DNA from: Nitrosopumilus sp.
Lineage (GTDB): Archaea; Thermoproteota; Nitrososphaeria; Nitrososphaerales; Nitrosopumilaceae
Assembly (NCBI GenBank): GCA_965205215.1
Contig: OZ242041.1
Span: forward strand, 32,001-96,000
Length of the DNA stretch: 64,000 nt
Reading direction: 5' to 3'
The notes beneath the pieces were generated by a model. The model was not told where the DNA came from. It saw only the letters and a list, made by a program, of their open reading frames with translations, and made no database searches. Both the position numbers and the translations under genes were made by a program. Positions 2,011-42,805 of this stretch are shown piece after piece (positions within the stretch are counted from its first letter, which is position 1; every line of letters starts with the position of its first letter).

Positions 2011-2224
2011 CCCGACCACGCCCCCGCGACCCTGATGGTCGCCTCGACGCCCCAGTCTCCCGGACCGCCGCCGCCGCCGCCGCCGCCGCCGTCATACCGG
2101 GCGCGAATCTTCACCTTGTATTCCTCGTCCTCCTCCAGGCCGGTGATGGTCCGGGAGGGTTCGGCCGGGAAGGCGTTGCCGGTCAGGTCCGTCCAGGTCA
2201 GGTAGGGATCGCCGGCCTTGGCCC
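1660..2224. repeat. Direct repeat copy 1 of the gene junction (FN3 3' end + ATGA + leader of the next gene)
   Basis: Near-identical to ~13802-14351; differs in (CCG)n length and scattered substitutions. Ends approximate. Confidence 0.85.
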
Positions 2225-2465
2225 GGGATACCCGGTAGTCGACCGGTGCCTCGCTGGGAATGTCCCACGTTATGGTTGTGGCGCCGGGTGCGGTGCTGTT
2301 CAGGGTTATGCCGGATATTTCGCGGGGCCCCACTTGCTGCTGCTGGGATACGGGCGGGTCGTCGTCGTCGTCGTCGTCGCTGCCGCCGTCCCGTCGCCGC
2401 AGTAATAGCCGCCGCCACTGCTGTTGCTGTCGTCGGCGGGGCCGCGACGGCCGAGTGCGGATCAT
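2007..2465 (-). CDS. FN3-like domain ORF; probably the detached C-terminal domain of protein B
   Basis: Encodes GPREISGITLNS...DYRVSRAKAGDPYLTWTDLTGNAFPAEPS...YKVKIRARY...EATIRVAG, the module that ends proteins C, D and E. The N-terminal ~25 aa look off-frame. ATGA overlaps with both neighbours. Confidence 0.55.
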   Translation of the reverse strand: MIRTRPSRPRRRQQQQWRRLLLRRRDGGSDDDDDDDPPVSQQQQVGPREISGITLNSTAPGATTITWDIPSEAPVDYRVSRAKAGDPYLTWTDLTGNAFPAEPSRTITGLEEDEEYKVKIRARYDGGGGGGGGGPGDWGVEATIRVAGAWSG

Positions 2466-14152: not shown

Positions 14153-14351
14153 CCCTGCCCCGACCCCGCGACCCTGATGGTCGCCTCGACGCTCCAGTCT
14201 CCCGGACCGCCGCCGCCGTCATACCGGGCGCGAACCTTCACCTTGTACTCCTCGTCCTCCTCCAGGCCGGTGATGGTCCAGGAGGGTTCGGTCGGGAAGG
14301 CGTTGCCGGTCAGGTCCGTCCAGGTCAGGTAGGGATCGCCGGCCTTGGCCC
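13802..14351. repeat. Direct repeat copy 2 of the gene junction
   Basis: Matches ~1660-2224. The two start codons are 12142 bp apart. Confidence 0.85.
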
Positions 14352-20300: not shown

Positions 20301-23300
20301 CCAGCGTGACTGTATCGCCCTCGGCCACTGACTGGTCCGGCCCTGCCTCGACTGCCGGCGGGCTGTTGGCGCTGTCCTCGATGGTAACTGTCATGGTGTC
20401 AGATGTGGTGGAGGTGCCGTCTGTGACCGTCAGGGTGAACTCTACCGGCGTGGCGGAGACGACGTTGGGTGCCGTGAACGAGGGGGACAGCGTGTCGCCG
20501 CCATCAAGCGTTATGGTCGAGGATCCGTTGTGGGTCCACGCGTAGTCCAGGGTGTCCTCGGGGTCGGCGTCAGTAGCCGTTCCCGTCAGGGTCACCTCGG
20601 ATCCTTCCGCGACGGACTGGTCCGACCCGGCGTCTGCGGCCGGCGGGCTGTTGGCGCTGTCCGATATGGTAACCGTCATGGTGTCAGATGTGGTGGAGGT
20701 GCCGTCTGTGACCGTCAGGGTGAACTCTACCGGCGTGGCGGAGACGACGTTGGGTGCCGTGAACGAGGTGGACAGTGCAGCCGCGTCGTCCAGTGTGATG
20801 GCCAGCGTGCCGTTGTGGGTCCACGTGTATACCAGGGTGTCCTCGGGGTCGGCGTCACTCGAGGTTCCCGTCAGGGTCACCTCGGATCCTTCCGCTACGG
20901 ACTGGTCGGCGCCCGCGTCGACTGCCGGCGGGCTGTTGGCGCTGTCCGATATGGTAACCGTCATGGTGTCAGATGTGGTGGAGGTGCCGTCTGTGACCGT
21001 CAGGGTGAACTCTACCGGCGTGGCGGAGACGACGTTGGGTGCCGTGAACGAGGGGGACAGAGCGGCCGCGTCGTCCAGTGTGATGGCCAGCGTGCCGTTG
21101 TGGGTCCACGTGTATGCCAGGGTGTCCTCGGGGTCGGCGTCAGTAGCCGTTCCGGCCAGCGTGACTGTATCGCCCTCGGCCACTGACTGGTCCGGCCCTG
21201 CCTCGACTGCCGGCGGGCTGTTGGCGCTGTCCTCGATGGTAACTGTCATGGTGTCAGATGTGGTGGAGGTGCCGTCTGTGACCGTCAGGGTGAACTCTAC
21301 CGGCGTGGCGGAGACGACGTTGGGTGCCGTGAACGAGGTGGACAGTGCAGCCGCGTCGTCCAGTGTGATGGCCAGCGTGCCGTTGTGGGTCCACGTGTAT
21401 ACCAGGGTGTCCTCGGGGTCGGCGTCAGTAGCCGTTCCGGCCAGCGTGACTGTATCGCCCTCGGCCACTGACTGGTCCGACCCGGCGTCTGCGGCCGGCG
21501 GGCTGTTGGCGCTGTCCGATATGGTAACCGTCATGGTGTCAGATGTGGTGGAGGTGCCGTCTGTGACCGTCAGGGTGAACTCGACCGGCGTGGCGGAGAC
21601 GACGTTGGGTGCCGTGAACGAGGTGGACAGAGCGGCCGCGTCGTCCAGTGTGATGGCCAGCGTGCCGTTGTGGGTCCACGTGTATACCAGGGTGTCCTCG
21701 GGGTCGGCGTCAGTAGCCGTTCCCGTCAGGGTCACCTCGGATCCTTCCGCGACGGACTGATCCGACCCGGCGTCTGCGGCCGGCGGGCTGTTGGCGCTGT
21801 CCGATATGGTAACCGTCATGGTGTCAGATGTGGTGGAGGTGCCGTCTGTGACCGTCAGGGTGAACTCGACCGGCGTGGCGGAGACGACGTTGGGTGCCGT
21901 GAACGAGGGGGACAGCGTGTCGCCGCCATCAAGCGTTATGGTCGAGGATCCGTTGTGGGTCCACGAGTATGCCAGGGTGTCCTCGGGGTCGGCGTCAGTG
22001 GCGGTTCCGGCCAGCGTGACTGTATCGCCCTCGGCCACTGACTGGTCCGACCCGGCGTCTGCGGCCGGCGGGCTGTTGGCGCTGTCCGATATGGTAACCG
22101 TCATGGTGTCAGATGTGGTGGAGGTGCCGTCTGTGACCGTCAGGGTGAACTCGACTGGGACATCAGAGACGACGTTGGGTGCCGTGAACGAGGGGGACAG
22201 CGTGTCGCCGCCATCAAGCGTTATGGTCGAGGATCCGTTGTGGGTCCACGCGTAGTCCAGGGTGTCCTCGGGGTCGGCGTCAGTAGCCGTTCCCGTCAGG
22301 GTCACCTCGGATCCTTCCGCGACGGACTGGTCCGACCCGGCGTCTGCGGCCGGCGGGCTGTTGGCGCTGTCCGATATGGTAACCGTCATGGTGTCAGATG
22401 TGGTGGAGGTGCCGTCTGTGACCGTCAGGGTGAACTCGACCGGCGTGGCGGAGACGACGTTGGGTGCCGTGAACGAGGTGGACAGTGCAGCCGCGTCGTC
22501 CAGTGTGATGGCCAGCGTGCCGTTGTGGGTCCACGCGTATGCCAGGACGTCCTCGGGGTCGGCGTCACTCGAGGTTCCCGTCAGGGTCACCTCGGATCCT
22601 TCCGCTACGGACTGGTCGGCGCCCGCGTCGACTGCCGGCGGGCTGTTGGCGCTGTCCGATATGGTAACCGTCATGGTGTCAGATGTGGTGGAGGTGCCGT
22701 CTGTGACCGTCAGGGTGAACTCTACCGGCGTGGCGGAGACGACGTTGGGTGCCGTGAACGAGGTGGACAGTGCAGCCGCGTCGTCCAGTGTGATGGCCAG
22801 CGTGCCGTTGTGGGTCCACGTGTATGCCAGGGTGTCCTCGGGGTCGGCGTCACTCGAGGTTCCCGTCAGGGTCACCTCGGATCCTTCCGCGACGGACTGG
22901 TCCGACCCGGCGTCTGCGGCCGGCGGGCTGTTGGCGCTGTCCGATATGGTAACCGTCATGGTGTCAGATGTGGTGGAGAGCCCGTCTGTGACCGTCAGGG
23001 TGAACTCGACTGGGACGTCAGAATCGACGTTGGGTGCCGTGAACGAGGGGGTCGGCGTGTCGCCTCCATCAAGCGTTATGGCCAGCGTGCCGTTGCGGGT
23101 CCACGCGTATGCCAGGACGTCCTCGGGGTCGGCGTCAGTAGCCGTTCCGGCCAGCGCGACGGTCTCGCCCTCTGTCACGGACTGGTCCGGCCCTGCCTCG
23201 ACGGCCGGCGGATTATTCGGCAGGATGCCGGCGGTGGCCACTGTGACAGTCCCGGTGGCGGGGTCGGCGCCAAAGTCCGCCCCGTCGGCCCTGATCCTCA

Positions 23301-26300
23301 CCTGGTGCTCGCCCGCCTCCAGTCCGAGGCCCGGCCTGAGCCGCAGGACGCCGTCGGCGTCCACCTCGAACTTGTCGGAGTTGGGGCCGGCAGGATCCAC
23401 CGTGTAGGCCGGGTTGTGGCCGGCCAGGTACCCGTTCTGGGGCAGGATGGTGCCCGCGGCCCCGTCGCTGGCGGCGATGGTATGGCCGTCCAGGGTGACA
23501 TACCAGGGGCCCAGGTCCTGGTCGAAGAGGGTGGCGCCATCGAACATCGAGCTCATGTCGGCGGCGGCCGAGACGTTCCAGGGCGAGATATCCTGGTCAA
23601 AGGAGGAGGCGCCCGAGAACATGTAGGACGTGTCGGTGACTGCCGAGACGTCCCATCCCGATACGTCCCGGTCAAAGGAGGAGGCGCCATCGAACATGCC
23701 GGACATGGAGGTGACTGCCGAGACGTCCCATCCCGATACGTCGCCGTCAAAGGAGGAGGCGCCGTAGAACATGATGTTCATGTTGGTGACTGCCGAGACG
23801 TCCCATCCCGATACGTTGCCGTCAAAGGAGGAGGCGCCCGAGAACATGGCGTTCATGTTGGTGACTGCCGAGACGTCCCATCCCGATACGTCCCGGTCAA
23901 AGGAGGAGGCGCCCGAGAACATGGCCGGCATGGAGGTGACTGCCGAGACGTCCCATCCCGATACGTTGCCGTCAAAGGAGGAGGCGCCCGAGAACATGCC
24001 GGACATGTCGGTGACTGCCGAGACGTCCCATCCCGATACGTCGCCGTCAAAGGAGGAGGCGCCGTAGAACATGTAGGACATGTCTGCGATGCCCGAGACG
24101 TCCCATCCCGATACGTCGCCGTCAAAGGAGGAGGCGCCCGAGAACATCGAGGCCGTGCTGCCCGCCCCGGACAGGTCGGGGGCGTCCGCGGCCCTGTAGG
24201 CCATGTTGGACGCGCCCATAAAGGCCCTGTCCATGGTGGTCCAGGGGATGTCGCCCCACTGGTCTATCGAGGCCAGCCTGGCGGCGTTGGCAGGGTCGCC
24301 GGCCAGGGAGATCCTCTCAAAGCCGCCGGTGATCGAGATGGTGTGGTTGCCGGGCTGCCCGTAGGCGTGCGTCCGGTCGCCGGAGACGCCGGTCTGGACG
24401 GTGCCGTCGCCCCAGTCGATGTCATAGGCGGCCGTCGAGCCCCCGACGGGGATGCTCACCTGCTCGCCGGGGGCGGTGGTCCTCCAGGTGGTGACAAAGC
24501 TGTGGCCGTCCAGCACGTCGCGCGCGGCCGGCGGGACGTCGGCGATGGTGATTGTGACGGTGTCAGATATGGTGGAGGTGCCGTCGGTGACCGTCAGGGT
24601 GAACTCGATGGTAACGTCTGCGTCGACCTCCGGGGCGACAAACGACGGCGACAGCGTGCCGGCTCCGCTCATCTGGATGGCGGCGGTGCCGTTGTGGGTC
24701 CACGTGTAGTCCAGGACGTCCCCCGGGTCGGCGTCAGAAGCGGTCCCGGCCAGCGTGACGGTATCGCCCTCGGCCACGGACTGGTCCGGCCCTGCGTCTG
24801 CGGCCGGCGGGCGGTTGGCCGGGGCGGACCCCGTGACGGTGACGGTCGCGTCCCCGCTCCAGTCGCCGGAGGGGGCGCCGTCGTAGCGGGCCAGCAGCCT
24901 CACCTTGTAGGGCTGGTCCTCCTCCAGGCCTGTGATGGTGTGGCGCGGCTCGGCCGGGAAGGCGTTGCCCGACAGGTCCTCAAAGCCCTTGTAGGGCTCG
25001 CCCGCCCTGGCCCAGGATATCCTGTAGTCGGCGGGGCCCTCGGAGGGGGGCTCCCAGGAGGCCTCCAGCACGCCGGGGACCGAGCTGACCAGGGTAATCC
25101 TGCCTATGTCGCGGGGCCCGGGCGGCCCGGACGGCTCCAGCACGGCGGTGTTTACGGGCGGGTCGTTGGCCGGATCGTTCAGGATCGTGACGACCGCGGC
25201 GTCCGAGGCGGCGCCGCCGTAGCTGTCGGTGACGCTCAGGGTAAATGTGACGGTGGCGTTGCCGGCGTAGAGCCGGGGGGCGGCAAACGAGGCCGACGGG
25301 GCCGCCGGGTCGTCCAGGGTGATGCCCAGGTCCGGCCTGTCGTGCGTCCACGAGTAGGCCAGGGCGTACTCGGAGCCGGAGGCCGAGCCCTCCAGGGTCA
25401 CCTCGGAGCCCTCCACGACTGCCAGGTCGGCCCCGGCGTCGGCGGCCAGGCCGGCGTTGGCGCCGTCCGGGATGGTGATTGTGACGGTGTCAGATGCGGT
25501 GTCCGTCCCGTCGGTGACCGTCAGGGTGAACTCGACGGCGGTGGCCCCCAGGACGTCGGGCGCGGCAAACGAGGGGGACGGGGCCGACGGGTCGTCCAGC
25601 GTGATGCCCAGGTCCGGCCTGTCGTGGGTCCACGAATATGCCAGGACGTCCCCCGGGTCGGCGTCAGTGGCGGTCCCGGCCAGCGTGACGGTATCGCCCT
25701 CGGCCACGGTCCGGTCGGCGCCCGCGTCGACTGCCGGCGGGCTGTTGGCCGATCCCGTGACGGTGATGATCGCGTCCCCGCTCCAGGCGCCGGAGGTGCC
25801 GCTGTAGGTGGCGCGCACCTGCACCTTGTAGGGCTGGCCCGCCTCCAGACCGGTGATGGTATGGTCCGGCTCGGTCGGGTAGGCGTTGCCGTCCGGATCC
25901 CTGAAGGACGGGTAGGACTCGCCCACCTTGGCCCAGGTGACCCGGTAGCCGGCGGGGCCCTCGGTGGGAGGCTCCCAGGAGGCCTCCAGCACTCCGGGGA
26001 CCGAGCTGACCAGGGTGATCCTGCCGATGTCGCGGGAATCGCGCGGGCTGGGCGGCTCCAGCACGGCGGTGTTTACGGGCGGGTCGTTGGCAGGATCGTT
26101 CAGGATCGTGACGACCGCGGCGTCCGAGGCGGTCGCGCCGTACTGGTCGGTGACGCTCAGGGTAAAGGTGACGGTGGTGCTGCTGGCGTAGACCACCGGG
26201 GCGGCAAACGAGGGGGACAGTGCAGACGGGTCGTCCAGCGTGATGCCCAGGTCCGGCCTGTCGTGCGTCCACGAGTAGGCCAGGGCGTACTCGGAGCCGG

Positions 26301-29300
26301 AGGCCGAGCCCGCCAGGGTCACCTCGGAGCCCTCCCCGACTGCCAGGTCGGCTCCGGCGTCGGCGGCCAGGTCGGCGTTGGCGCCGTCCGGGATGGTGAT
26401 TGTGACGGTGTCAGATACGGTGGCCCTCCCGTCGGTGACCGTCAGGGTGAACTCGACGGCGGTGGCCCCCAGGACGTCGGGCGCGGCAAACGAGGGGGAC
26501 AGTGCAGACGGGTCGTCCAGCGTGACGTTCAGGTCCGGCCTGTCGTGGGTCCACGAATATGCCAGGACGTCCCCCGGGTCGGCGTCAGTGGCGGTCCCGG
26601 CCAGCGTGACGGTCTCGCCCTCGGCCACGGTCCGGTCGGCGCCCGCGTCGACTGCCGGCGGGCTGTTGACCTGCCCCACGACGGTGATGATCGCGTCCCC
26701 GCTCCAGGCGCCGGAGGGGCCTGCGTCGTAGCGGGCCAGCAGCCTCACCTTGTAGGGCTGGTCCTCCTCCAGGCCGGTGATGGTGTGGCGCGGCTCGGCC
26801 GGGAAGGCGTTGCCCGACAGGTCCTCAAAGCCCCTGTAGGGCTCGCCCACCTTGGCCCAGGATATCCGGTAGTCGGCGGGGCCGTCGGTGGGAGGCTCCC
26901 AGGAGGCCTCCAGCGCCCCGGGGGCCGAGCTGGACAGGGTGATCCTGCCTATGTCGCGGGGCCCTGGCGGCCCGGACGGCTCCAGCACGGCGGTGTTTAC
27001 GGGCGGGTCGTTGGCCGGATCGTTCAGGATTGTGACGACCGCGGCGTCCGAACCGGTCGCGTTGTACTGGTCGGTGGCGCTCAGGGTAAAGGTGACGGTG
27101 GCGTTGCCGGCGTAGAGCCGGGGGGCGGCAAACGAGGTGGACAGTGCAGCCGCGTCGTCCAGTGCGATGCCCAGATCCGGCCGGTCGTGCGTCCACGAGT
27201 AGGCCAGGACGTCCCCGGGGTAGGCGCCGGAGGCCGTTCCGGCCAGGAACACCTCGGATCCCTCTGCCACAGTCTGGTCGGCGCCGGCGCCGACAGTCGG
27301 ATGGCCCCTGGCGGATCCCGCGACGGTGATGATCGCGTCCCCGCTCCAGGCGCCGGAGGCGCCGTTGTAGACGGCGCGCATCTTCACCTTGTAGGGCTGG
27401 CCCTCCTCCAGGCCGGTGATGGTGTGGCGCGGCTCGGTCGGGTAGGCGTTGCCCGACAGGTCCTCAAATCCCCTGTAGGACTCGCCCGCCCTGGCCCAGG
27501 ATATCCGGTAGTTGGCGGGGCTGTCGGAGGGCTCCTCCCAGGAGGCCTCCAGCGCCCCGGGTACCGAGCTGGACAGGGTGATCCTGCCTATGTCGCGGGG
27601 CCCTGGCGGCCCGGGCGGCTCCAGCACGACGGTGTCTGACGGGTCGTTGGCAGGATCGTTCAGTATTGTGACGAGCGCGGTGTCCGAGGCGGCGGCCCCG
27701 AGGCTGTCGGTGACGGTCAGCGTAAAGGAGACGGGCGTGTCGGCGGTGACGTTGGGGGCGGTGAACGACGGGGAGAGCGTGTCGGCGCCCGAGACGGCGA
27801 TGCCCAGGTCCGGCCGGTCGTGGGTCCACCGGTAGGCGGGGGCATAGTAGTCCGAGCCGGTGGCGGCGCCCTCCAGGGTCACCCCGGAGCCCTCGGCCGC
27901 TGTCAGGTCGGCCCCGGCGTCGGCCGTCGGGGCGGCCGTATGGAGCACATCTATGGGCCGGTCGGCGGTGCCGGCTATCCCGCGGCCGGACAGGCCAAAG
28001 ACTGCGTCCTCGTCGACGTCCAGCTGGGGAGCGGACATGGCCGCCACCTCCGAGCGCTGCGCGTCGGCCAGCACGAAGGTGAGGGTGGCGCCGGAGGCCG
28101 GCCCCGCCTGGGCGCCGTCCAGCCGGACGCCGCCGGCGTCCCGGCCCTGCTCGCGGACGTGCAGGCGATCATGGTTGGCCGTCCCGTTGAGCGGCTCGCT
28201 GAAGGTGATGGTGAGCCTGCCGTCGCCTGTCGCGTAGGCGGCCGAGGCAAGCTCGGGTTCGGTGGAGGTGACCGTGACGGTCCTGGTGGCGGGGTCGGCG
28301 CCAAAGTACACCCCGGCGGCCAGGATTCTCACCTGGTGCTCGCCCGCCTCCAGTCCGAGGCCCGGCCTGAGCCGCAGGACGCCGTCGGCGTCCACCTCGA
28401 ACTTGTCGGAGTTGGGGCCGGCAGGGTCCACCGCGTAGGCCGGGCGGTGGCCGGCCAGGTACTCGTTCTGCGGCGAGATTGTGCCGACTGCCCCCCCGGC
28501 GGCGAGGGCATGGCCGTCCAGTGTGACATACCAGGGGCCCAGGTCCTGGTCAAAGAGGGTGGCGCCGCTGAACATGTTGTCCATGTAGAGTACAGAGGAG
28601 ACGTCCCATCCGGAGACGTCCTGGTTGAAGGAGGAGGCCCTGTTGAACATGTACTCCATGTAGAGTACAGAGGAGACGTCCCATCCGGAGACGTCCTGGT
28701 CAAAGGAGGAGGCGCCGTCGAACATGGCGAACGTTTCGGTGACGGCGCCGACGTCCCATCCGGAGATGTCCTGGTCAAAGGAGGAGGCGCCCGCGAACAT
28801 GATGGCCATGCTGGTCACCTGCGAGACGTCCCATCCGGAGACGTCCTGGTCAAAGGAGGAGGCGCCGCTGAACATGTTGCCCATGTCGGTGACGCCGGAC
28901 ACGTCCCAGGCGGACAGGTCGCCGTCAAAGGAGGAGGCGCCCGCGAACATGGATCGCATGTCGGTCACGCCCGAGACGTCCCAGGATGACAGGTTGCCGT
29001 CAAAGGAGGAGGCGCCGTTGAACATCGAGACCGTGCTGTCCACCCCGGTCAGGTCGGGCGCGTCGGCCGCCCGGTAGACCATGTTGGCGGCCCCGGCAAA
29101 CGCCCCGTCCATGTCAGTCCAGGAGATGGCGCCCCACTGGTCTATCGAGGCCAGACTGGCGGCGTTGGCCCTGTCGCCGGCCAGGGAGATCCTCTCAAAG
29201 CCGCCGGTGATCGAGACGGTGTGGTTGCCGGGCTGCCCGTAGGTGTGCGTCTGGTCGCCGGAGACGCCGGTCTGGACGGTGCCGTCGCCCCAGTCGATGT

Positions 29301-29685
29301 TATAGGAGGCCGTCGAGCCCCCGACGGGGATGGTTATCGTCTGGTCGGCGGCGGTGGTCCTCCAGGTGGTGACAAACGGGCCGGTCCCGGACTCGGCAAA
29401 CGCGTAGCCGGGCAGCAGTCCGTCCCCGGCCAAATCCAGCGCGGGCATCAGCATGGATCCGTGCCCCGCCGGATGCGGCGCCGTGTGCGGCCCAAGATCC
29501 TGCTGCGTCAGCAGGTAACCCGCAGACGCGGCTGCCAGCAGCAGCAGCGCCGCCGCCAGCACGGCCATCATCAGGAGTCCCGACGTGCCGCTGCGCCCCT
29601 GTCCCGGCCGCGCGCGCCAGGCCGCCTGCCGGCGCCGCGGACGCGGGATCGCCGCGCGGTTTGATCCAAAATGCGTTATGTTCAT
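14149..29685 (-). CDS. Giant surface protein C (~5180 aa): three DUF285/BspA-like modules, 21 tandem PKD-like repeats plus further PKD-like, Ig-like and FN3-like domains
   Basis: The 5194-aa ORF opens at 29733. The ATG at 29685 (MNITHF) is preferred because the 29733 start lies inside the putative invertible segment, but the start is uncertain. Hydrophobic leader MMAVLAAALLLLAAASAG. The stop overlaps the start of B (ATGA). Confidence 0.88.
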   Translation of the reverse strand: MNITHFGSNRAAIPRPRRRQAAWRARPGQGRSGTSGLLMMAVLAAALLLLAAASAGYLLTQQDLGPHTAPHPAGHGSMLMPALDLAGDGLLPGYAFAESGTGPFVTTWRTTAADQTITIPVGGSTASYNIDWGDGTVQTGVSGDQTHTYGQPGNHTVSITGGFERISLAGDRANAASLASIDQWGAISWTDMDGAFAGAANMVYRAADAPDLTGVDSTVSMFNGASSFDGNLSSWDVSGVTDMRSMFAGASSFDGDLSAWDVSGVTDMGNMFSGASSFDQDVSGWDVSQVTSMAIMFAGASSFDQDISGWDVGAVTETFAMFDGASSFDQDVSGWDVSSVLYMEYMFNRASSFNQDVSGWDVSSVLYMDNMFSGATLFDQDLGPWYVTLDGHALAAGGAVGTISPQNEYLAGHRPAYAVDPAGPNSDKFEVDADGVLRLRPGLGLEAGEHQVRILAAGVYFGADPATRTVTVTSTEPELASAAYATGDGRLTITFSEPLNGTANHDRLHVREQGRDAGGVRLDGAQAGPASGATLTFVLADAQRSEVAAMSAPQLDVDEDAVFGLSGRGIAGTADRPIDVLHTAAPTADAGADLTAAEGSGVTLEGAATGSDYYAPAYRWTHDRPDLGIAVSGADTLSPSFTAPNVTADTPVSFTLTVTDSLGAAASDTALVTILNDPANDPSDTVVLEPPGPPGPRDIGRITLSSSVPGALEASWEEPSDSPANYRISWARAGESYRGFEDLSGNAYPTEPRHTITGLEEGQPYKVKMRAVYNGASGAWSGDAIITVAGSARGHPTVGAGADQTVAEGSEVFLAGTASGAYPGDVLAYSWTHDRPDLGIALDDAAALSTSFAAPRLYAGNATVTFTLSATDQYNATGSDAAVVTILNDPANDPPVNTAVLEPSGPPGPRDIGRITLSSSAPGALEASWEPPTDGPADYRISWAKVGEPYRGFEDLSGNAFPAEPRHTITGLEEDQPYKVRLLARYDAGPSGAWSGDAIITVVGQVNSPPAVDAGADRTVAEGETVTLAGTATDADPGDVLAYSWTHDRPDLNVTLDDPSALSPSFAAPDVLGATAVEFTLTVTDGRATVSDTVTITIPDGANADLAADAGADLAVGEGSEVTLAGSASGSEYALAYSWTHDRPDLGITLDDPSALSPSFAAPVVYASSTTVTFTLSVTDQYGATASDAAVVTILNDPANDPPVNTAVLEPPSPRDSRDIGRITLVSSVPGVLEASWEPPTEGPAGYRVTWAKVGESYPSFRDPDGNAYPTEPDHTITGLEAGQPYKVQVRATYSGTSGAWSGDAIITVTGSANSPPAVDAGADRTVAEGDTVTLAGTATDADPGDVLAYSWTHDRPDLGITLDDPSAPSPSFAAPDVLGATAVEFTLTVTDGTDTASDTVTITIPDGANAGLAADAGADLAVVEGSEVTLEGSASGSEYALAYSWTHDRPDLGITLDDPAAPSASFAAPRLYAGNATVTFTLSVTDSYGGAASDAAVVTILNDPANDPPVNTAVLEPSGPPGPRDIGRITLVSSVPGVLEASWEPPSEGPADYRISWARAGEPYKGFEDLSGNAFPAEPRHTITGLEEDQPYKVRLLARYDGAPSGDWSGDATVTVTGSAPANRPPAADAGPDQSVAEGDTVTLAGTASDADPGDVLDYTWTHNGTAAIQMSGAGTLSPSFVAPEVDADVTIEFTLTVTDGTSTISDTVTITIADVPPAARDVLDGHSFVTTWRTTAPGEQVSIPVGGSTAAYDIDWGDGTVQTGVSGDRTHAYGQPGNHTISITGGFERISLAGDPANAARLASIDQWGDIPWTTMDRAFMGASNMAYRAADAPDLSGAGSTASMFSGASSFDGDVSGWDVSGIADMSYMFYGASSFDGDVSGWDVSAVTDMSGMFSGASSFDGNVSGWDVSAVTSMPAMFSGASSFDRDVSGWDVSAVTNMNAMFSGASSFDGNVSGWDVSAVTNMNIMFYGASSFDGDVSGWDVSAVTSMSGMFDGASSFDRDVSGWDVSAVTDTSYMFSGASSFDQDISPWNVSAAADMSSMFDGATLFDQDLGPWYVTLDGHTIAASDGAAGTILPQNGYLAGHNPAYTVDPAGPNSDKFEVDADGVLRLRPGLGLEAGEHQVRIRADGADFGADPATGTVTVATAGILPNNPPAVEAGPDQSVTEGETVALAGTATDADPEDVLAYAWTRNGTLAITLDGGDTPTPSFTAPNVDSDVPVEFTLTVTDGLSTTSDTMTVTISDSANSPPAADAGSDQSVAEGSEVTLTGTSSDADPEDTLAYTWTHNGTLAITLDDAAALSTSFTAPNVVSATPVEFTLTVTDGTSTTSDTMTVTISDSANSPPAVDAGADQSVAEGSEVTLTGTSSDADPEDVLAYAWTHNGTLAITLDDAAALSTSFTAPNVVSATPVEFTLTVTDGTSTTSDTMTVTISDSANSPPAADAGSDQSVAEGSEVTLTGTATDADPEDTLDYAWTHNGSSTITLDGGDTLSPSFTAPNVVSDVPVEFTLTVTDGTSTTSDTMTVTISDSANSPPAADAGSDQSVAEGDTVTLAGTATDADPEDTLAYSWTHNGSSTITLDGGDTLSPSFTAPNVVSATPVEFTLTVTDGTSTTSDTMTVTISDSANSPPAADAGSDQSVAEGSEVTLTGTATDADPEDTLVYTWTHNGTLAITLDDAAALSTSFTAPNVVSATPVEFTLTVTDGTSTTSDTMTVTISDSANSPPAADAGSDQSVAEGDTVTLAGTATDADPEDTLVYTWTHNGTLAITLDDAAALSTSFTAPNVVSATPVEFTLTVTDGTSTTSDTMTVTIEDSANSPPAVEAGPDQSVAEGDTVTLAGTATDADPEDTLAYTWTHNGTLAITLDDAAALSPSFTAPNVVSATPVEFTLTVTDGTSTTSDTMTVTISDSANSPPAVDAGADQSVAEGSEVTLTGTSSDADPEDTLVYTWTHNGTLAITLDDAAALSTSFTAPNVVSATPVEFTLTVTDGTSTTSDTMTVTISDSANSPPAADAGSDQSVAEGSEVTLTGTATDADPEDTLDYAWTHNGSSTITLDGGDTLSPSFTAPNVVSATPVEFTLTVTDGTSTTSDTMTVTIEDSANSPPAVEAGPDQSVAEGDTVTLAGTATDADPEDTLAYTWTHNGTLAITLDDAAALSPSFTAPNVVSDVPVEFTLTVTDGTSTTSDTMTVTISDSANSPPAVDAGADQSVAEGSEVTLTGTATDADPEDTLDYAWTHNGTLAITLDDAAALSPSFTAPNVVSDVPVEFTLTVTDGTSTTSDTMTVTISDSANSPPAVDAGADQSVAEGSEVTLTGTATDADPEDTLDYAWTHNGTLAITLDDAAALSPSFTAPNVVSDVPVEFTLTVTDGTSTTSDTMTVTISDSANSPPAVDAGADQSVAEGSEVTLTGTATDADPEDTLDYAWTHNGTLAITLDDAAALSPSFTAPNVVSDTPVEFTLTVTDGTSTISDTMTVTISDSANSPPAVEAGPDQSVAEGDTVTLAGTATDADPEDTLAYSWTHNGSSTITLDGGDTPTPSFTAPNVVSDTPVEFTLTVTDGTSTTSDTMTVTISDSANSPPAADAGSDQSVAEGSEVTLTGTATDADPEDVLAYAWTHNGSSTITLDGGDTPTPSFTAPNVVSATPVEFTLTVTDGTSTTSDTMTVTISDSANSPPAADAGSDQSVAEGSEVTLTGTATDADPEDVLAYAWTHNGTLAITLDGGDTLSPSFTAPNVVSDTPVVFTLTVTDGTSTTSDTMTVTISDSANSPPAADAGSDQSVAEGSEVTLTGTATDADPEDVLAYAWTHNGTLAITLDGGDTLSPSFTAPNVVSATPVEFTLTVTDGTSTTSDTMTVTISDSANSPPAADAGSDQSVAEGSEVTLTGTATDADPEDVLAYAWTHNGTLAITLDGGDTLSPSFTAPNVVSDTPVVFTLTVTDGTSTISDTMTVTISDSANSPPAADAGSDQSVAEGSEVTLTGTATDADPEDVLAYAWTHNGTLAITLDGGDTLSPSFTAPNVVSATPVEFTLTVTDGTSTTSDTMTVTISDSANSPPAADAGSDQSVAEGSEVTLTGTATDADPEDVLAYAWTHNGTLAITLDGGDTLSPSFTAPNVVSDTPVVFTLTVTDGTSTTSDTMTVTISDSANTDPAQARGAPDGSSFVTTWRTTQPGESITIPASGQYTISWGDGQVDTGVSGTRTHSYDVPGTYTVSISDGITRIVLDGHPDAKKLVSIEQWGSARWESMDSAFAWAANMVYRATDVPNLSRVTDMDRMFHRAASFNGDISDWDVSAATTMSAMFRSASSFDQPLNAWDVSSVTDMSDMFAGARSFDQPLNAWDVSSVTDMSAMFVSARSFDQPLNAWDVSSVTDMSRMFHASSFDQDISSWDVSSVTDMSHMFDIADSFDQPLNAWDVSAATTMSGMFLHADSFDQPLNAWDVSSVTDMSAMFAGATSFNGDISSWDVSGVASTAGMFDSAASFNGDISDWDVSAAADMSDMFRGAASFNGDISDWDVSAATTMMRMFAGASSFDQPLNAWDVSAAADLFGMFGRASSFNQDLSAWDVSAAADMSHMFTGASSFDQNLGSWYIVLDGAAARDGDEALTVGHISAQNAFLDGQGPTYGLGPDADSSSFEIENSTLRLKPAPDGHAKSSYTVTITSTGDFGAGNSRTLEVTVPGPPANRQPTADAGPDLAVAEGDTVTLAGTAADADPGDVLVYSWTHNGTLAIQVAGSDTLTPSFTAPPVDSDVPVEFTLTVTDGTAASTDTATVTVSDVPAVSLPPTADAGPDLTVAEGSAVTLSGIAIHAGDRPATYSWSHDSALGIPITGSDTLTPSFTAPNVDSDTAVTFTLSVTDPRNATATDSVIITIADGANSPPTAGAGSDRAVAEGNAVALAGTAYDADPGDTLAYTWTHDSALGIPITGSDTLAPSFVAPLVDADTPVTFTLSVTDTRNATATATVIITITDIPPSSVPGSPRGLSVSPAASGTLDVSWQPPPSDGGERITGYTVQWKEGAGSWDAPADIGQATVTGTAHSITGLADGTPYAVRVIAINAVGSGEPSPEAAATPRDPRHVGGITLSSTQPGTILASWDAPAEAPRDYRVSWAKAGDPYLTWTDLTGNAFPTEPSWTITGLEEDEEYKVKVRARYDGGGGPGDWSVEATIRVAGSGQG
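17231..23215. repeat. 21 tandem 285-bp repeats (95-aa PKD-like domains) in gene C
   Basis: TTGGCGCTGTCC recurs every 285 bp from 17231 to 22931. Confidence 0.93.
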
Positions 29686-29690
29686 TTTAT

Positions 29691-29718
29691 GGCTTTCATA
29701 ATGCCCATTATGATGCGG
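29691..29718 (+). promoter_or_regulatory. dif-like site L: GGCTTTCATAA-TGCCCA-TTATGATGCGG
   Basis: 11-6-11 layout with a CATAA-N6-TTATG core, as in E. coli dif (GGTGCGCATAA-TGTATA-TTATGTTAAAT). Function is inferred. Confidence 0.6.
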
Positions 29719-29839
29719 GATTTGGAACCACATGCAGGTCCGGCGGGTTCATCACATTCGAAATCCTGCATCATAACGCGCGGGGGCGGGCAGCCCACTT
29801 CGTAATGTTTTTATGTATTTTATGCAAACGTTCAACATC

Positions 29840-29867
29840 GTGTATGATAATGGGCATTATGACGCCA
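29840..29867 (-). promoter_or_regulatory. dif-like site R (inverted): TGGCGTCATAA-TGCCCA-TTATCATACAC on the minus strand
   Basis: 29847-29862 is the exact reverse complement of 29696-29711. Same 6-bp spacer as site L, opposite orientation. Confidence 0.6.
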
Positions 29868-30339
29868 AAATAGAGCTATAGTGCCGGATATATTGCATAA
29901 TTCACGTCCATAACCATGGCCGGGATCAAAAGCCCTCAAGGGACAGACCTGCCAAGCAGAGGCGGACTTTGATCCTTTTTTCTCCCCTTCTCACCTTCTC
30001 CCCTTCTCTCCCCCTCCCCCCCCCCCCACTCCCCGTACCACGCACGGCATGGCAGCGGCCAAGGCGGCCGGACCCGCGGCGCCGGCAGAGGACGGGGCCT
30101 CTCCCATGCACGGCGCCGGGTCCGGGCGCAGGTACCTCCCCCCTGCGCGGAGGGACGGCCGCCCCATGCACGAAAAACCAGAGGGGCGACGGCATGCGGC
30201 GCCGTACCGGCGGCGGCATGCGGCTCCCCGGGGCACGCGGCGCAGGGTTCGGCACGAAGGCACTCATCCGGTATGTCGCAGAAGTGAAGCGGCGGTTCGG
30301 AAATGGGCGCGGTCCCGGACGGGGCGCCCCACTCCCCAC

Positions 30340-30716
30340 CTACGCGCGCGCGAGCTGCAAATGACGCGCCGCATGCGGCGCGTTGCGCAGCCTGCTGCCC
30401 GGATGCGCGCGGGGGCGCTTCCCAGCTGGGCCCGCCAGGCCGCAGCCCGGCAGGGTGGCGGCTTCCCATGATTGAACCGCACAACAGAAATAAACATGAT
30501 GGGCAAGAGTCTGGCATATGATCCGGGCGCAAAGGGCCCCGCTGCCTGGCGGCGCGGGTACAGGGGCGCTGCTGGTGCCCCTGGCGGTGGCAGTCGCGCT
30601 GACGGCAGTGGTTCTGGGGACGGCGCAGCCATACTTGCACAGCCTGTCCGGGGATGTCGACGCGCCATACCCGGACACGCCGGCCGCCGCCCCCGGGTGG
30701 CACGCCTTCGCGCAGT
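30340..30716. repeat. Upstream region + leader repeat of gene D (copy at ~42420-42805 before gene E)
   Basis: Shared GCAAATGACGCG...AGAAATAAACATGATGGGCAA...CACGCCTTCGCGCAGTCC. Ends approximate. Confidence 0.85.
30486..30496 (+). promoter_or_regulatory. Putative TATA-like element of gene D (same motif at ~42575-42585 for gene E)
   Basis: AGAAATAAAC lies ~25-30 nt upstream of the ATG in both paralogs, the spacing expected for leaderless archaeal transcripts. Weak match to consensus. Confidence 0.4.
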
Positions 30717-33700
30717 CCGTCCAGGCCGTGCTGGACCTGAGGCCGGCCGGCCACATCTCCGACGGCGATCCCGGCGCCCCGGAGCTCGACGGCGCGACAG
30801 ACATAGCCACATTCGAGACCGGCGGGCACGTCTACGCGGCCGTCGCGTCGTTTGACGACGACGGCGTCCAGATCCTCAACGTCACCGACCCGGCCAACGT
30901 CTCCGGGGTCGGTAGCATCACCGACGGCGATCCCGGCACCCCGGAGCTTGACACCGCAAGCGGCATCGCCACCTTCGAGGCCGGCGGGCACGTCTACGCG
31001 GCCGTCGCGTCAGACGCCGACGACGGCGTGCAGATCCTCAACCTCACCGACCCGGCCAACATCGCCGGGGTCGGCAGCGTCAACGACGGCGATCCCGGCG
31101 TCCCGGAGCTCGACGGCGCCCGCGGCATCGCCACATTCGAGACCGGCGGGCGCGTCTACGCGGCCGTCGCCGCGTCCGGCGACGACGCGGTCCAGATCCT
31201 CGACCTCACCGACCCGGCCAACGTCTCCGGGGCCGGCAGCATCACCGACGGAGATCCCGGCGCCCCGGCGCTCAACGGCGCAAGCGACATCGACACATTC
31301 GAGACCGGCGGGCACGTCTACGCGGCCGTCGCGTCAGACTACGACGATGCCGTCCAGATCCTCAACCTCACCGACCCGGCCAACATAGCCGGGACCGACA
31401 GCATCGCCGACGGCGATCCGGGCGGCCCGAGCATCGGCGGCGCGCTGGGCATCGCCACATTCGAGACCGGCGGGCACGTCTACGCGGCCGTCGCGTCGTT
31501 TGACGACGACGCAGTCCAGATCCTCAACGTCACCGACCCGGCCAACATCTCCGTGGCCGGCAGCATCGCCGACGGCGATCCCGGCGCCCCGGCGCTCAAC
31601 GGCGCGTTCGGCATCGCCACCTTCGAGATCGGAGAGCGGCACGTCTACGCGGCCGTCGCGTCAATCTACGATGATGCCGTCCAGATCCTCAACCTCACCG
31701 ACCCGGCCAACATCACCGGGGCCGGCCACGTCGCCGACGGCGATCCCGGCGCCCATGAGCTCGACGGCGCAAGCGACGTCACCACCTTTGAGACCGGCGG
31801 CCGCACCTACGCGGCCGTCACGTCATCCCGCGACAACGGAGTCCAGATCGTCCAGCTGGCCGCCGCGCGCGCCCCGCCGGCCGTCGACGCCGGCCCCGAC
31901 CAGGCCGTCCGGGAGGGAACCGAGGTCGCGCTCAACGGAACTGCCTCCGGCCCGGATCCCGGCGACAGCATCTCCTACCTGTGGAGCCACGACCGGCCCG
32001 ACCTGAACGTCACGCTGGCCGACCCGGCGGCCCTGTCGACCACGTTTACGGCCCCGCAGGTGGACACCAGCACCAACACCAGCACCACCATAACCTTTAC
32101 GCTGACGGCCACAGACAGGCACAACGCGACCGCCTCGGACGCCGCCACGGTCACCGTCCTGGACACCCCGCCCAACCGGCCGCCGGCCGCCGACGCCGGC
32201 CCCGACCAGACCGTCCGGGAGGGATCCGAGGTCTCGCTGAACGGCACCGCCACGGACCCCGACGGCGACAGCGTCTCCTACATGTGGAACCAGACCTCGG
32301 GCCCGCCGGTGGAACTGCTGGGGGCCGACACGCCGTCCCCCTCGTTCACGGCGCCCGAGGTCTCCTCCGACGCGGTGCTCGCCTTCGAGATGGCCGCCGG
32401 CGACGGCCTTGACAGCACCACCGACACCGTCCGGGTGACGGTGCGCGACGCGCCGGACGCCTCCCACTTTGTCACCACCTGGAAGACGAAGACCGCCGGC
32501 GAGTCCATAACCATCCCGGCGGGCGGAACCGGCGGCGCCTACACCGTCGACTGGGGCGACGGGACCGTCGACGAGGGCGTCTCGGGGAGCCGGACGCACT
32601 CGTATGACGGGGCCGGCACCCACACGGTCAGCATATCGGGAGACTTTTCAAGGATCAGCCTCGGCGGCAGCCCGGCCAACGCGAAAAAGCTGCAGTCGAT
32701 AGAGCAGTGGGGGGACGTACAGTGGAAGTCTATGAGATCGGCGTTTGCCGGGGCCTCGAACATGGCCTACCGCGCGACCGACGCCCCGGACCTCTCGCGG
32801 GTGGCAGACACGTCCCAGATGTTCGCCTACGCATCCTCCTTTGACGGCGACATATCAGGCTGGGACGTCTCGCGGGTGACAGACATGACTGCCATGTTCC
32901 AGGACGCCTCCTCGTTCGACGGCGACCTGTCATCCTGGAACGTCTCGCGCGTGACAGACATGGGCTACATGTTCTACGGCGCCTCCTCGTTTGACGGCGA
33001 CATATCCGGCTGGGACGTCTCGCGGGTGACAGACATGGACTACATGTTCACCGACGCCACCTCGTTTGACGGCGACATCTCCGGCTGGGACGTCTCGCGC
33101 GTGACCCGCATGAGCTACATGTTCTACGGCGCCACCTCGTTTGACCAGAACCTCGGCGCCTGGTACATCACCCTTGACAGCACCGCCATCGGCCACGGCG
33201 ACATCCCCGGGACGGTCGGCGGCATCGCCGCCCAGAACGCCCCGCTCAGCAGGCAGAACCCCGCCTACGGGATAGGCTCCGGCGGCGACTCGAGCCTCTT
33301 TGAGATCAACGGCACCGGCCTGGTACTGACGGCCGCCCCGGACCGCCCGGCGGATCCCCCCTACACCGTCAACGTGACCGCCACCGGCAGCTTCGGCTCC
33401 AACAACAACCACCGCGTCATCGAGGTGTCCATCGCAAGCCTCCCGCTCACCGCCGGCGCCGGCCCCGACCAGGCGGTTACGGAAGGGCGCCCCGTGCACC
33501 TGAACGGCACGGCCGTCTACGGCGGGCCGGCGGACAGGCCGGCCTACCTGTGGACGCACGACCGGCCCGACCTGAACGTCACGCTGGCCGACCCGGCGGC
33601 CCTGTCGACCACGTTTACGGCCCCGCAGGTCGACTCCAACACCACCATAACATTTACCCTGACGGCCACCGGCCGCCACAACGCGACCGCCACGGACGCC

Positions 33701-36700
33701 GCCACGGTCACCGTCATGGACACCCCGCCGAACCGGCCGCCCACGGCCGACGCAGGGCCGGACCGGTCAGTCGAGGAGGGGGCCGCGGTGACGCTTGCCG
33801 GCGGCGCCACGGACCCCGACGGCGACAGCGTCTCCTACCTGTGGAACCAGACCTCGGGCCCGCCGGTAGTGGAACTGCGGGGGGCCGACACGCCGTCCCC
33901 CTCGTTCACGGCGCCCGAGGTCGCCTCCGACGCGGTGCTCGCCTTTGAGATGACCGCCGGCGACGGCATGCACAACTCCACCGACGCGGTCCGGGTGACG
34001 GTGCGCGACGTGCCGGAGAGCTCCCACTTTGTCACCACCTGGAAGACGAAGACCGCCGGCGGGTCCATAACCATCCCGGCGGGCGGCACCTACACAGTCG
34101 ACTGGGGCGACGGGACCGTCGACCGGCGCGTCTCGGGGAGCCGGACGCACGCGTACGACGAGGCCGGCACCCACACGGTCCGCATATGGGGGGGGCTCTC
34201 AAGCATCAACCTCGGCGGCAACCCGGCCAACGCGCAAAAGCTGCAGTCTATAGAGCAGTGGGGGGACATACGGTGGAGGTCGATGGGATCGGCGTTCCAG
34301 GGCGCCTCGAACATGGTCTACCGCGCGACCGACGCCCCGGACCTCTCGCGCGTCACCGACACGTCCTTCATGTTCCGCGACGCGGCCTCCTTCAGCGGCA
34401 ACCTGTCATCCTGGGACGTCTCCTCCGTGACCAACATGGACGCGATGTTCTACCACGCCCACTCCTTCAACAGCGACCTCTCCAGTTGGAACGTCTCGCG
34501 GGTGTACGACATGAACGCAATGTTTTCCCAGGCGTACCCCTTCAACAGCGACCTCTCCGCCTGGGACGTCTCGAATGTGCTCTATATGGGCACGATGTTC
34601 TCAAGAACCTCCTTTGACGGCGACATATCAGGCTGGAACGTCTCGCGGGTGATAGACATGCACTGGATGTTCGAGGGCGCCTCCTCCTTCAACAGCGACC
34701 TCTCCGGGTGGGACGTCTCGTCTGCATACGACATGTCCAAGATGTTCTACGGCGCCTCCTCCTTCAACAGCGACCTCTCTGCCTGGAACGTATCGCGGGT
34801 GGACTCCATGTACAGGATGTTCGAGGGCGCCTCCTCCTTCAACAGCGACCTCTCTGCCTGGAACGTATCGCGGGTGTTCGACATGACAGGGATGTTCTCA
34901 GGCGCCTCCTCCTTCAACAGCGACATATCCGGCTGGAACGTATCGCGGGTGGCAGACATGCCCCAGATGTTTGCAAGGGCCTCCTCCTTCAACAGCGACC
35001 TGTCATCCTGGGACGTATCGCAGATGGACGACACGTCAAAGATGTTTGCAGGGGCCTCCTCCTTTGACGGCGACCTGTCATCATGGAACGTCTCGCGGGT
35101 GACAGACATGTCCCAGATGTTTGCAAGGGCCTCCTCCTTTGACGGCGACATATCAGGCTGGGACGTCTCGCAGGTGACAGACATGCACCGGATGTTTGCA
35201 GGGGCCTCCTCCTTTGACGGCGACCTCTCCAGTTGGAACGTCTCGCAGGTGACAGACATGTCCCAGATGTTCGAGGGCGCCGATGCCTTTGACCAGAATC
35301 TGGGCAACTGGTACATCGTGCTGGACGGCCTGCAGGCCAGCGGCGCCGATGACGGGGGGATAGTGGGGGAGATATCGGCGCAGAACGCGTTCCTTGCAGG
35401 CCAGGAACCGGCATACGGGATGGGAACGGGGGGTGACTCTAACCTGTTTGAGATAGTCAACGGCACCATCCTGAAGCTCAGGACGCCCCCGGACGATGCC
35501 CCGGCAGAAGGCCCGTATGCGGTGACCGTAACGTCCACCGGCCGCTTCGGCACCGACAACTCCCGCACGTTTGAGATTGCGCCAGCAGAGAACCCGCGCT
35601 CCCCGCCGGCCGTCGGCGCCGGCCCCGACCAGGCCGTCCGGGAGGGAACCGAGGTCGCGCTCAACGGAACTGCCTCCGACCCGGATCCCGGCGACAGCCT
35701 GGCCTACCTGTGGACGCACGACCGGCCCGGCCTTAACGTCACGCTGGCCGACCCGGCGGCCCTGTCGACCACGTTTACGGCCCCGCAGGTGGACTCCAAC
35801 ACCAACACCACCATAACATTCACGCTGACGGCCACCGACCGGCATGGCATGGCCGCCTCGGACACAGTGGCCGTCACCATACTGGACGTCCCCGCCGACG
35901 ACGACCCGCCGCTCCAGAGCAACACTGCAGTGCTGGAGGCGCAACGCAGCTTCCGCGACATAGGCAGCATCACCCTGGTCAGCTCCACACCCGGGACCAT
36001 CCAGGCGAGCTGGGTCGCCCCGGCCGAGCCGCCGGCCAACTACCGGATAACGTGGGCCAAGGCCGGCGAGGTGTTCCCGAGCTGGACGGACCAGATGGGC
36101 AACGCCTTCCCGACCGAGCCCTCCTGGACCATTACCGGCCTGGAGGGGGGCGAGAGGTACAAGGTGAAGGTGCGCGCCTCCTACTCCGGCACCGCCGGCG
36201 ACTGGAGCGGCGAGCTGGCCATCACCGTTGTGGGGGCCACGCCGGCCAACAGGCCGCCCGCCGTAGATGCCGGCCCCGACCAGGCCGCTCCGGAGGGATC
36301 GGAGGTCGCACTCAGCGGCACCGCCACCGACCCGGATCCCGGCGACAGCCTGGCCTACCTGTGGACCCACGACCAGCCGACCCTGAACGTCACGCTGGCC
36401 GACCCGGCGGCCCTGTCGACCACGTTTACGGCCCCGCAGGTGGACTCCAACACCACCATAACCCTTACGCTGACGGCCACCGACCGGCACGGCATGGCCG
36501 CCTCGGACACAGTGGCCGTCACCATACTGGACGTCCCCGCCGACGACGACGACCCGCCGCCCGCCCCAGTCGATCCTCCAGAAGACACCACCACCACCAC
36601 AGTCCTGGACCCGCCCGACCCCCGCGGCCCCCGCGACATAGGCAGGATCACCCTGGCCAGCCCCGCCCCCGGGACCATCCAGGCGGGCTGGGAGCCCCCC

Positions 36701-42419: not shown

Positions 42420-42805
42420 TGCGCGTGCGCCGCAAATGACGCGGCGCAAATGACGCGGCGCATGCGGCGCGTTGCACAGCTTGCTGCCCGGATGCGCGCG
42501 GGGGCGCTTCCCAGTTGGGCCCGCCAGGCCGCAGCCCGGCAGAGTGGCGGCTTCCTATGACTGAACCACACAATAGAAATAAACATGATGGGCAAAAGTC
42601 CGACATATGACACGGGCGCAAAGGGCCCCGCGGCCTGGCGGCGCGGGTACAGGGGCGCTGCTGGTGCCCCTGGCGGTGGCAGTCGCGCTGACGGCAGTGG
42701 TTCTGGGGACGGCGCAGCCATACTTGCACAGCCTGTCCGGGGATGTCGACGCGCCATACCCGGACACGCCTGCCGCCGCCCCCGGGTGGCACGCCTTCGC
42801 GCAGT
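42420..42805. repeat. Upstream region + leader repeat of gene E
   Basis: Matches ~30340-30716 and adds a 14-bp tandem duplication at 42431-42458. Confidence 0.85.

Follow-up and report, generated by a model that had tools for sequence, protein, structure and literature searches.

The inverted site pair W, situated between two divergent giant surface-protein genes in a 64,000-nt stretch of a Nitrosopumilus sp. genome (contig OZ242041.1, positions 32,001 to 96,000; hereafter, the window), probably belongs to a family of promoter switches that are inverted by a recombinase and serve giant surface proteins, a reading to which we assign a probability of about 0.58. According to this model, a tyrosine recombinase of a lineage-specific family of ~500 aa (recW or a paralogue) would bind the arms of the dyads and exchange strands within the identical 6-bp spacers, flipping the ~135-bp segment between the W sites. 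That segment would carry a BRE/TATA promoter ~30 nt from one site, which, in the assembled orientation, would point outwards across site R and leave gene C behind it; once the segment is flipped, transcription would start 36–43 nt upstream of the gene C ATG and the C-B-A surface-protein operon would be on. The genome would have at least five switches of this kind, W included, each ahead of a DUF285/PKD surface-protein gene. The features of the window that bear on this model are the following:

1..2019, minus strand: gene A, cut by the window end; N-terminus paralogous to those of B and C
2462..14152, minus strand: gene B, 3896 aa, downstream of C; N-terminus paralogous to that of C
14149..29685, minus strand: gene C, giant surface protein (first 2500 aa: DUF285 x5, K319L-like PKD x11, fn3); its stop overlaps the gene B start (ATGA 14149-14152)
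29691..29718, plus strand: site L, on the surface-gene side; dyad 29696-29713, spacer TGCCCA 29702-29707; 6 nt from the gene C ATG
29703-29727 / 29757-29781: internal inverted repeat of W, 25 nt, 84%
29798..29825: BRE/TATA-like patch in W; matrix score 14.1 on the plus strand (29798-29815), 12.2 on the minus strand (29808-29825)
29840..29867, minus strand: site R; dyad 29845-29862, spacer 29851-29856; equivalent to the recombinase-side site of sister elements
29921..29981, plus strand: stem GGATCAAAG/CTTTGATCC followed by T6; fold of 150 nt, z -1.5
30477-30494, plus strand: TATA-like box of gene D, score 9.3, 24-41 nt ahead of the gene D ATG
30518..41776, plus strand: gene D, divergent giant surface protein with DUF285, PKD, fn3 and Ig-like domains
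42607..50022, plus strand: gene E, second surface protein, downstream of D
52430..54007, plus strand: recW, 525-aa protein with a tyrosine-recombinase fold

W consists of two 28-mers in inverted orientation, which were found at exactly the coordinates and on the strands given by the first-pass annotation. Their cores are identical at 16 of 16 positions (29696-29711 vs 29847-29862 reverse-complemented), and each site is a near-perfect 8-2-8 dyad of 18 bp, TCATAATG-CC-CATTATGA, with 149 bp between the dyad centres. The spacer TGCCCA is present in both sites, which bears out the earlier claim of a shared, identical and asymmetric 6-bp spacer. Since the sites are near-palindromic, their orientation is set only by the central CC vs GG (spacer TGCCCA vs TGGGCA), and the term ‘inverted orientation’ rests on this 6-bp spacer. 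The pair is built like two inverted core sites of a tyrosine recombinase, as had been proposed. The dyad symmetry covers 6–8 nt per arm (TCATAA(TG)), vs 11 in dif, around a spacer of 6 nt. Further, the internal repeat yields a third half-site, GCATCATAA, at 29770-29778, and a comparable internal inverted copy of the inner arm was recognised by eye in the sister elements V and S1–S3 described below.

When up to three mismatches were allowed, the W 15-mer gave four matches (two places on two strands) vs 0.21 expected, a number attained by none of 100 shuffles. In the genome, a single contig of 2,098,239 bp (60.3% GC, 95% complete), the 14-mer ATAATGNNCATTAT occurs at exactly two places, both in W. 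A chance origin of the site pair is excluded. Four other matches to the pattern YATAA-N6-TTATR in the genome differ from W in sequence.

The inverted repeat itself is longer than the sites, reaching 33 nt at 82% (29696-29728 / 29830-29862) and, with gaps allowed, ~20 nt more outwards on both sides. This continuation past the 28-mers, together with the paralogous and mutually inverted signal-peptide regions of genes C and D, would suit a relic, either of a mobile element or integrase module or of an inverted duplication behind C and D, with no present function at W. However, the cores have stayed identical at 16/16 positions, whereas the flanks have drifted to ~65%, and we regard a relic as improbable.

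The genome was scanned with the relaxed pattern A[TC]AA-N6-TT[AG]T, and pairs within 110–220 bp were collected. Among 68 sites, only five such pairs were found, all of them exact inverted partners 147–149 bp apart:

window 29691-29867: element W, inverted site pair
genome 1973.3 kb: element V
genome 981.7 kb: element S1
genome 1109.7 kb: element S2
genome 1227.7 kb: element S3

Three further elements, one in a genome of the same genus (G002) and two in another genus of the family (G310 and G236), were found by following the recombinase gene into other genomes. In all eight elements the partner spacers are identical and in inverted orientation, and five different spacers occur among the lineages (TGCCCA, GGATCA, TGGCTA, AGAGCA and AGGACA) between conserved arms, A[T/C]AA..TT[A/G]T. 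In V, the two sites have undergone a joint change of arms (ACAA/TTGT), and the V recombinase diverges most among the paralogues. One spacer within each pair and five among lineages are what would be expected of recombination partners, and there is no reason for such a pattern under binding by a transcription factor.

V is a collinear paralogue of W (z = 18.8 for the alignment of their interiors). W aligns to S1–S3 in reverse complement, with 73% vs 68% column identity and a common interior block; accordingly, the counterpart of site R in the S elements is their left site, and that of site L is their right, gene-proximal site. Within S1–S3, the sites are 93–96% invariant vs 40–59% in the flanks, and an extra central palindrome made from the same half-site is 97% invariant. 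Together with the difference between core and flanks in W, these values suggest that the cores are under selection. The homology among S1–S3 runs past the repeat ends into both flanks, which speaks against a relic, as do the same build in eight elements of two genera with phased spacing and the count of only five such pairs in the genome. A miniature transposable element (MITE) was considered and set aside on the same continuation into the flanks and on the presence of only five copies.

The distance between dyad centres is 147–149 or 167–169 bp over the eight elements, i.e., 14.0–14.2 or 15.9–16.1 helical turns, and this phased spacing fits a small protein-held loop. Helical phasing suits looping as well as synapsis, and archaeal regulators bind palindromes of the sort formed by each site. 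The elements may be pictured as a fixed architecture, in which the dyads are operators around a bidirectional promoter and a repression loop of 14 or 16 turns, joining the two sites, governs recombinase and surface genes with no inversion; the binder would be a domesticated regulator of the recombinase family or another transcription factor. The extra, strongly conserved central palindrome of S1–S3 would also be in keeping with this alternative, which, in either version, we consider possible but rather unlikely. A regulator needs no identical inverted spacers, yet all eight pairs have them, in five versions. Moreover, no solo site of the W type was found ahead of other genes in the genome, where the five pairs are the only close ones.

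A single site was encountered elsewhere, at a second recombinase locus of G236 (L150 ~1574-1595), in the form TGACAA-AGGGAA-TTGTCT. It is homologous to the site on the recombinase side in the other element of G236 and has no partner in the ~400 nt inspected downstream, on the side away from the recombinase gene. This may be a solo or a decayed switch; a single, partnerless site would also be compatible with a fixed architecture.

Other repeats were also noted. In G002 (L084 1340-1420), GGGGCAGGTTT is repeated about nine times in tandem in the interval from the element to where the recombinase gene starts. The Nitrosopumilus genome carrying W contains another family of long dyads, a 42-nt palindrome (TACCCGGTAACAATCATAG-N4-reverse complement) that occurs in pairs:

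genome 625634-626195, 963592-963743 and 1127768-1128384: TACCCGGTAACAATCATAG palindrome sets, with one pair 148 nt apart

Immediately past the set at 1.128 Mb there is a distantly integrase-like frame (1128888-1130138, minus strand), which adjoins a tRNA-Leu(CAA) at 1130113; this locus is possibly an integrated element.

The gene context of the eight elements is likewise shared. A large Ig/PKD/DUF285 surface-protein gene, encoding a giant protein with a signal peptide, abuts every one of them, and, on the other side, a recombinase-family gene starts ~75–870 nt away in five (V, S3, G002, G310 and G236). W, S1 and S2 are without an adjacent recombinase gene; for W, the paralogue recW is located 22.6 kb away in the same island, and no recombinase remnant was found beside W on its right side. 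Three marks of an inverton are present, namely inverted sites with identical crossover regions around a short segment (in W, and with matching spacers in 8/8), a recombinase that is adjacent in 5/8, and an abutting gene for a surface structure, the putative target of control, in 8/8. From this sequence pattern we infer that a recombinase may bind at W and invert the segment. In the genome, about five of roughly ten DUF285 gene clusters carry an element; by the A[TC]AA-N6-TT[AG]T scan, the clusters at ~1063.6, 1219-1221.6, 1720-1722, 1940-1941 and 2056-2057.6 kb have no site pair.

The island recombinase had been put forward as a candidate enzyme, and this gained support from the fact that members of its family sit directly beside sister elements elsewhere; recW is 67–82% identical to three paralogues adjoining V and S3. 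It belongs to an uncharacterised family of ~500-aa proteins with at least 378 members at E<=1e-5, among which one homologue is named by NCBI as coming from a Nitrosopumilaceae archaeon. The closest homologues, P0001 and P0003, share one 15-kb contig. The distribution of the family is patchy (8/60 relatives; 6/400 genomes of the taxonomic family at E<=1e-90) and multi-copy where present. Such a pattern resembles that of mobile-element integrases and, like the missing neighbouring recombinase gene at W, would agree with a relic; against this, no relatives of recW were found in viral contigs.

Conventional searches placed recW only loosely: matches to Pfam and NCBIfam models were weak, phmmer against PDB sequences gave none, and the profile search reached XerA only at E 0.38. 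For an AlphaFold2 model (mean pLDDT 71), the matches listed by Foldseek, all of them tyrosine recombinases, comprised archaeal XerA, lambda Int, XerD, Cre and XerH at E 5e-6 to 1e-3, with XerA nearest in fold. On the predicted structure, recW has the two-domain fold of tyrosine recombinases (core-binding and catalytic), plus an extra N-terminal winged-helix-like part.

For the catalytic residues, a recW profile was compared with three XerA genes from the phylum, at an hhalign probability of only 17%. In this weak alignment, K286, H365-x-x-R368 and H391 coincide with XerA catalytic residues, and the Tyr column of XerA falls between two invariant tyrosines, Y397 and Y404. The column of XerA Arg I, in a weakly aligned part, holds an invariant Asp (D243), which was found at the expected position in all 30 aligned family members; R250 is nearly invariant. 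This Asp would be in line with a fixed architecture and a binding protein derived from a recombinase. Conversely, the invariance of K, H-x-x-R, H and two Tyr residues across the family argues for retained chemistry. Farther along the window, at 59132-60913 (minus strand), a eukaryote-type topoisomerase IB is encoded, with three Pfam domains at E values down to 1e-68.

The core of W has the dif-like form CATAA-N6-TTATG, and the first-pass annotation had accordingly called the sites dif-like and named the host XerA as a second possible enzyme. In the accessible part of PMC8371274, archaeal dif sites are described as 28-bp, 11-6-11 sites present in a single copy per chromosome. A Xer/dif pair used by the host XerA, i.e., chromosome-dimer resolution sites co-opted for inversion, would share with W the dyad arms, the 6-bp spacer, the CATAA..TTATG-like core and a recombinase whose fold is closest to XerA. 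However, none of six genome matches to the XerA family (NF040815) exceeded its cut-off, the best reaching 33.3 bits vs 220 and recW itself 27 bits, in a genome that is 95% complete on a single contig. Neither was XerA found in five other sampled genomes of the family, and it was over the cut-off in 3 of 40 genomes of the phylum. The sites occur as five inverted pairs rather than as a single dif, and the recombinase is ~250 aa longer than XerA. With no XerA in the genome, W does not belong to a Xer/dif system, unless such a gene sits in the portion that is missing from the assembly; we find this alternative very hard to credit, and both the dif label and host XerA were dropped.

An AT-rich patch, TTTTTATG/TTTTATG, lies between the sites at 29809-29825, and GC content is 0.628 in 29001-30000 vs 0.68–0.73 alongside, so that the earlier description of a conspicuous AT-rich patch holds. 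A promoter matrix derived from the sequences upstream of this genome's 42 tRNA genes, which recovers BRE and a TTTAAAT-like box 25–42 nt before the mature 5′ ends, scored the patch on both strands. From the plus-strand box, the start is predicted at ~29830-29837, ~10 nt before site R; the gene C strand carries another high-scoring box (14.3) at 29684-29701, which speaks against the switch. By computation, exchange within the spacers would bring the predicted start to 36–43 nt upstream of the gene C ATG, in agreement with the previous suggestion that a flipped promoter would point at gene C from close upstream. That ATG, at 29685, is supported as the gene C start by the N-termini of the paralogues A and B.

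A promoter-like patch is found ~30 nt from one site in each of the eight elements. In five of them (W, V, S2, S3 and G002) it is predicted to face the recombinase side; in G310 and G236, the best box adjoins the surface-side site and faces the surface gene. Both promoter activity and promoter direction in W are predictions from these scores. In W, the S elements and G002 the patch scores on both strands, and consequently a fixed bidirectional promoter is possible, a point in favour of the fixed architecture. Coming back to the inversion switch, a more elaborate ‘flip-and-lock’ circuit can be envisaged, in which a small invertible promoter would alternately drive its own recombinase or a giant adhesin operon, with an enzyme from a new clade of tyrosine recombinases that has a winged-helix-like domain at the N-terminus and no canonical Arg I; the system would be self-contained and would have multiplied to several loci, each with a private spacer. 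We propose this circuit tentatively and consider it doubtful.

A toggle between the two arms of the locus had also been suggested, but this idea is weak. Gene D has its own TATA-like box, 24–41 nt before its ATG, and is separated from W by 650 nt that lack a credible reading frame and contain the stem with T6 at 29921..29981, itself a weak candidate for a possible stop of a rightward transcript.

Several additional observations were made around W. Genes A, B and C resemble one another in DNA where they encode their N-termini (29560-29685 vs 14042-14152 and 1858-2019), with frames shifted over ~20 codons (AAIPRPRRRQAAW vs AAIPASAASAGGP), all of them open. To the right of W (window 29975-30030), a CT-rich tract with three 8-nt TTCTCCCC-like units passes into C11; in sequencing run X2 this poly-C tract draws depths of 5,600–18,500 from other sequences and is a mapping hazard. 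The turn in GC skew at 29–30 kb follows the change of coding strand, and a replication origin, considered for the inverted boxes around the AT patch, was dropped as five copies ahead of surface genes do not fit. An Rfam scan of the window returned only a sub-threshold IRES_Bip match within coding sequence, and no tRNA was found within it; a sigma-70 and terminator scan found nothing, these models being inapplicable to archaea.

The flipped form of W was looked for in the contigs of two runs of one study (X1 and X2), which are blind to minor variants, and only the reference orientation was seen. Contigs spanning W in this orientation measured 1152 nt at depth 29 and 757 nt at depth 100 (X1 and X2, respectively), no other contig lay on 29624-29931, and none of 11 listed joints fell in W. 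A major second orientation is excluded in these samples, contigs dropping minor variants. A further run, X3, held next to none of the sequence words of W, and no related populations for a comparison of orientation between strains were found in metagenome and genome collections. Between elements, the six that can be aligned (W, V, S1–3 and G002) share one interior orientation relative to the recombinase side; the interiors of G310 and G236 align in neither direction and differ only by the predicted promoter position. A single orientation, both in contigs and among the six elements, would also be expected of a fixed architecture.

Searches beyond this genome gave little. The W region had no match in 40 relatives. 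For S2, only 22–37-nt matches (E 2.5e-4 to 9e-3) were obtained in 17 of 150 genomes of the genus, mostly at the 3′ end of the query and none covering the element, and the G236 element had no match in nine other genomes of its genus. When the surroundings (±6–7 kb) of 20 other copies of the recombinase gene, in G002, G018, G007 and G009, were inspected, a dyad-type repeat was present only at the known G002 locus, and YATAA-N6-TTATR was not enriched relative to a control pattern in G002, G007, G009, G018 or G014. In a collection of genome contigs that may lack the genome carrying W, the paired pattern matched 12 bacterial records and no archaeal one; a scan of metagenome contigs for the core and inner arm gave two matches, with GC 0.29 and 0.53 and no blastn match to the genome, which were set aside as unrelated. 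The 14-mer palindrome was matched in 42 of 120 genomes of the genus, and the 30 loci inspected were likewise set aside (GC 0.28–0.38, 14 of them in one coding context). Genus loci with the AT-rich test pattern have 28–38% GC; this value, the topoisomerase IB and the Nitrosopumilaceae homologue of recW were taken together to place the organism among archaea of the Nitrosopumilaceae kind. High GC in this group is reported, in the portion of PMC7848895 available, for sponge symbionts placed in Nitrosopumilus. A 571-nt scaffold of Marinifilum caeruleilacunae (L073) carries two lox-like 34-mers, ATAACTTCGTATA-8 nt-TATACGAAGTTAT, which look like vector carry-over in a public assembly.

Among characterised switches, fimS of Escherichia coli, a 314-bp segment with 9-bp repeats acted on by FimB/FimE, resembles W as a short promoter segment between inverted repeats, with tyrosine-recombinase gene(s) directly alongside (here, in 5/8 elements) and a surface-structure operon on the other side. 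It differs in that the present host is an archaeon with a BRE/TATA promoter, the segment is ~135 bp, the recombinase family has ~500 aa, a winged-helix-like N-terminal part and an Asp at the expected Arg I, and the elements are known from sequence, no flipped form having been seen. RecV-dependent segments in Clostridioides difficile measure ~150–200 bp. According to the accessible text of PMC8890394, RecV serves several invertible segments (flgB and cwpV). The likeness lies in one recombinase type and several short segments of similar size upstream of surface or motility genes; however, RecV is a single unlinked recombinase acting on differing repeats, whereas here paralogous recombinases lie beside their own elements, with strict dyads and a 6-bp spacer.

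The mpl lipoprotein genes of Mycoplasma penetrans undergo promoter inversions by Xer-like tyrosine recombinases. As here, many paralogous surface genes each have a small promoter segment bounded by short inverted repeats, with a role implied for Xer-like enzymes; the mpl genes are bacterial and form another gene family, whereas in the present genome an element is carried by about half of the DUF285 clusters. In Bacteroides, the invertible promoters of capsule loci use a serine invertase. There too, an element family with a common repeat consensus is associated with surface genes in a host-associated microbe, and invertible promoters control surface architecture, as stated in the available part of PMC10403206. 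For archaea, the part of PMC10028968 at hand reports 12 putative invertons in 42 euryarchaeal and crenarchaeal genomes, none of them from this lineage. Our search of the literature on phase variation, inversion or recombinases in ammonia-oxidising archaea or Thaumarchaeota found no such system.

Among the main ways in which host-associated bacteria vary their surfaces is programmed DNA inversion, which, to our knowledge, is almost unexplored in archaea. If the elements flip, operons of up to ~29 kb of adhesin-like genes would be switched on and off in a high-GC archaeon, which would bear on the dealings of such archaea with hosts and viruses and would provide a role for a recombinase family that numbers several hundred members and is so far uncharacterised. 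Pairs of sites and enzymes with private spacers may, in addition, represent possible orthogonal recombination tools. The flip-and-lock circuit, if true, would amount to combinatorial surface variation in a host-associated thaumarchaeon.
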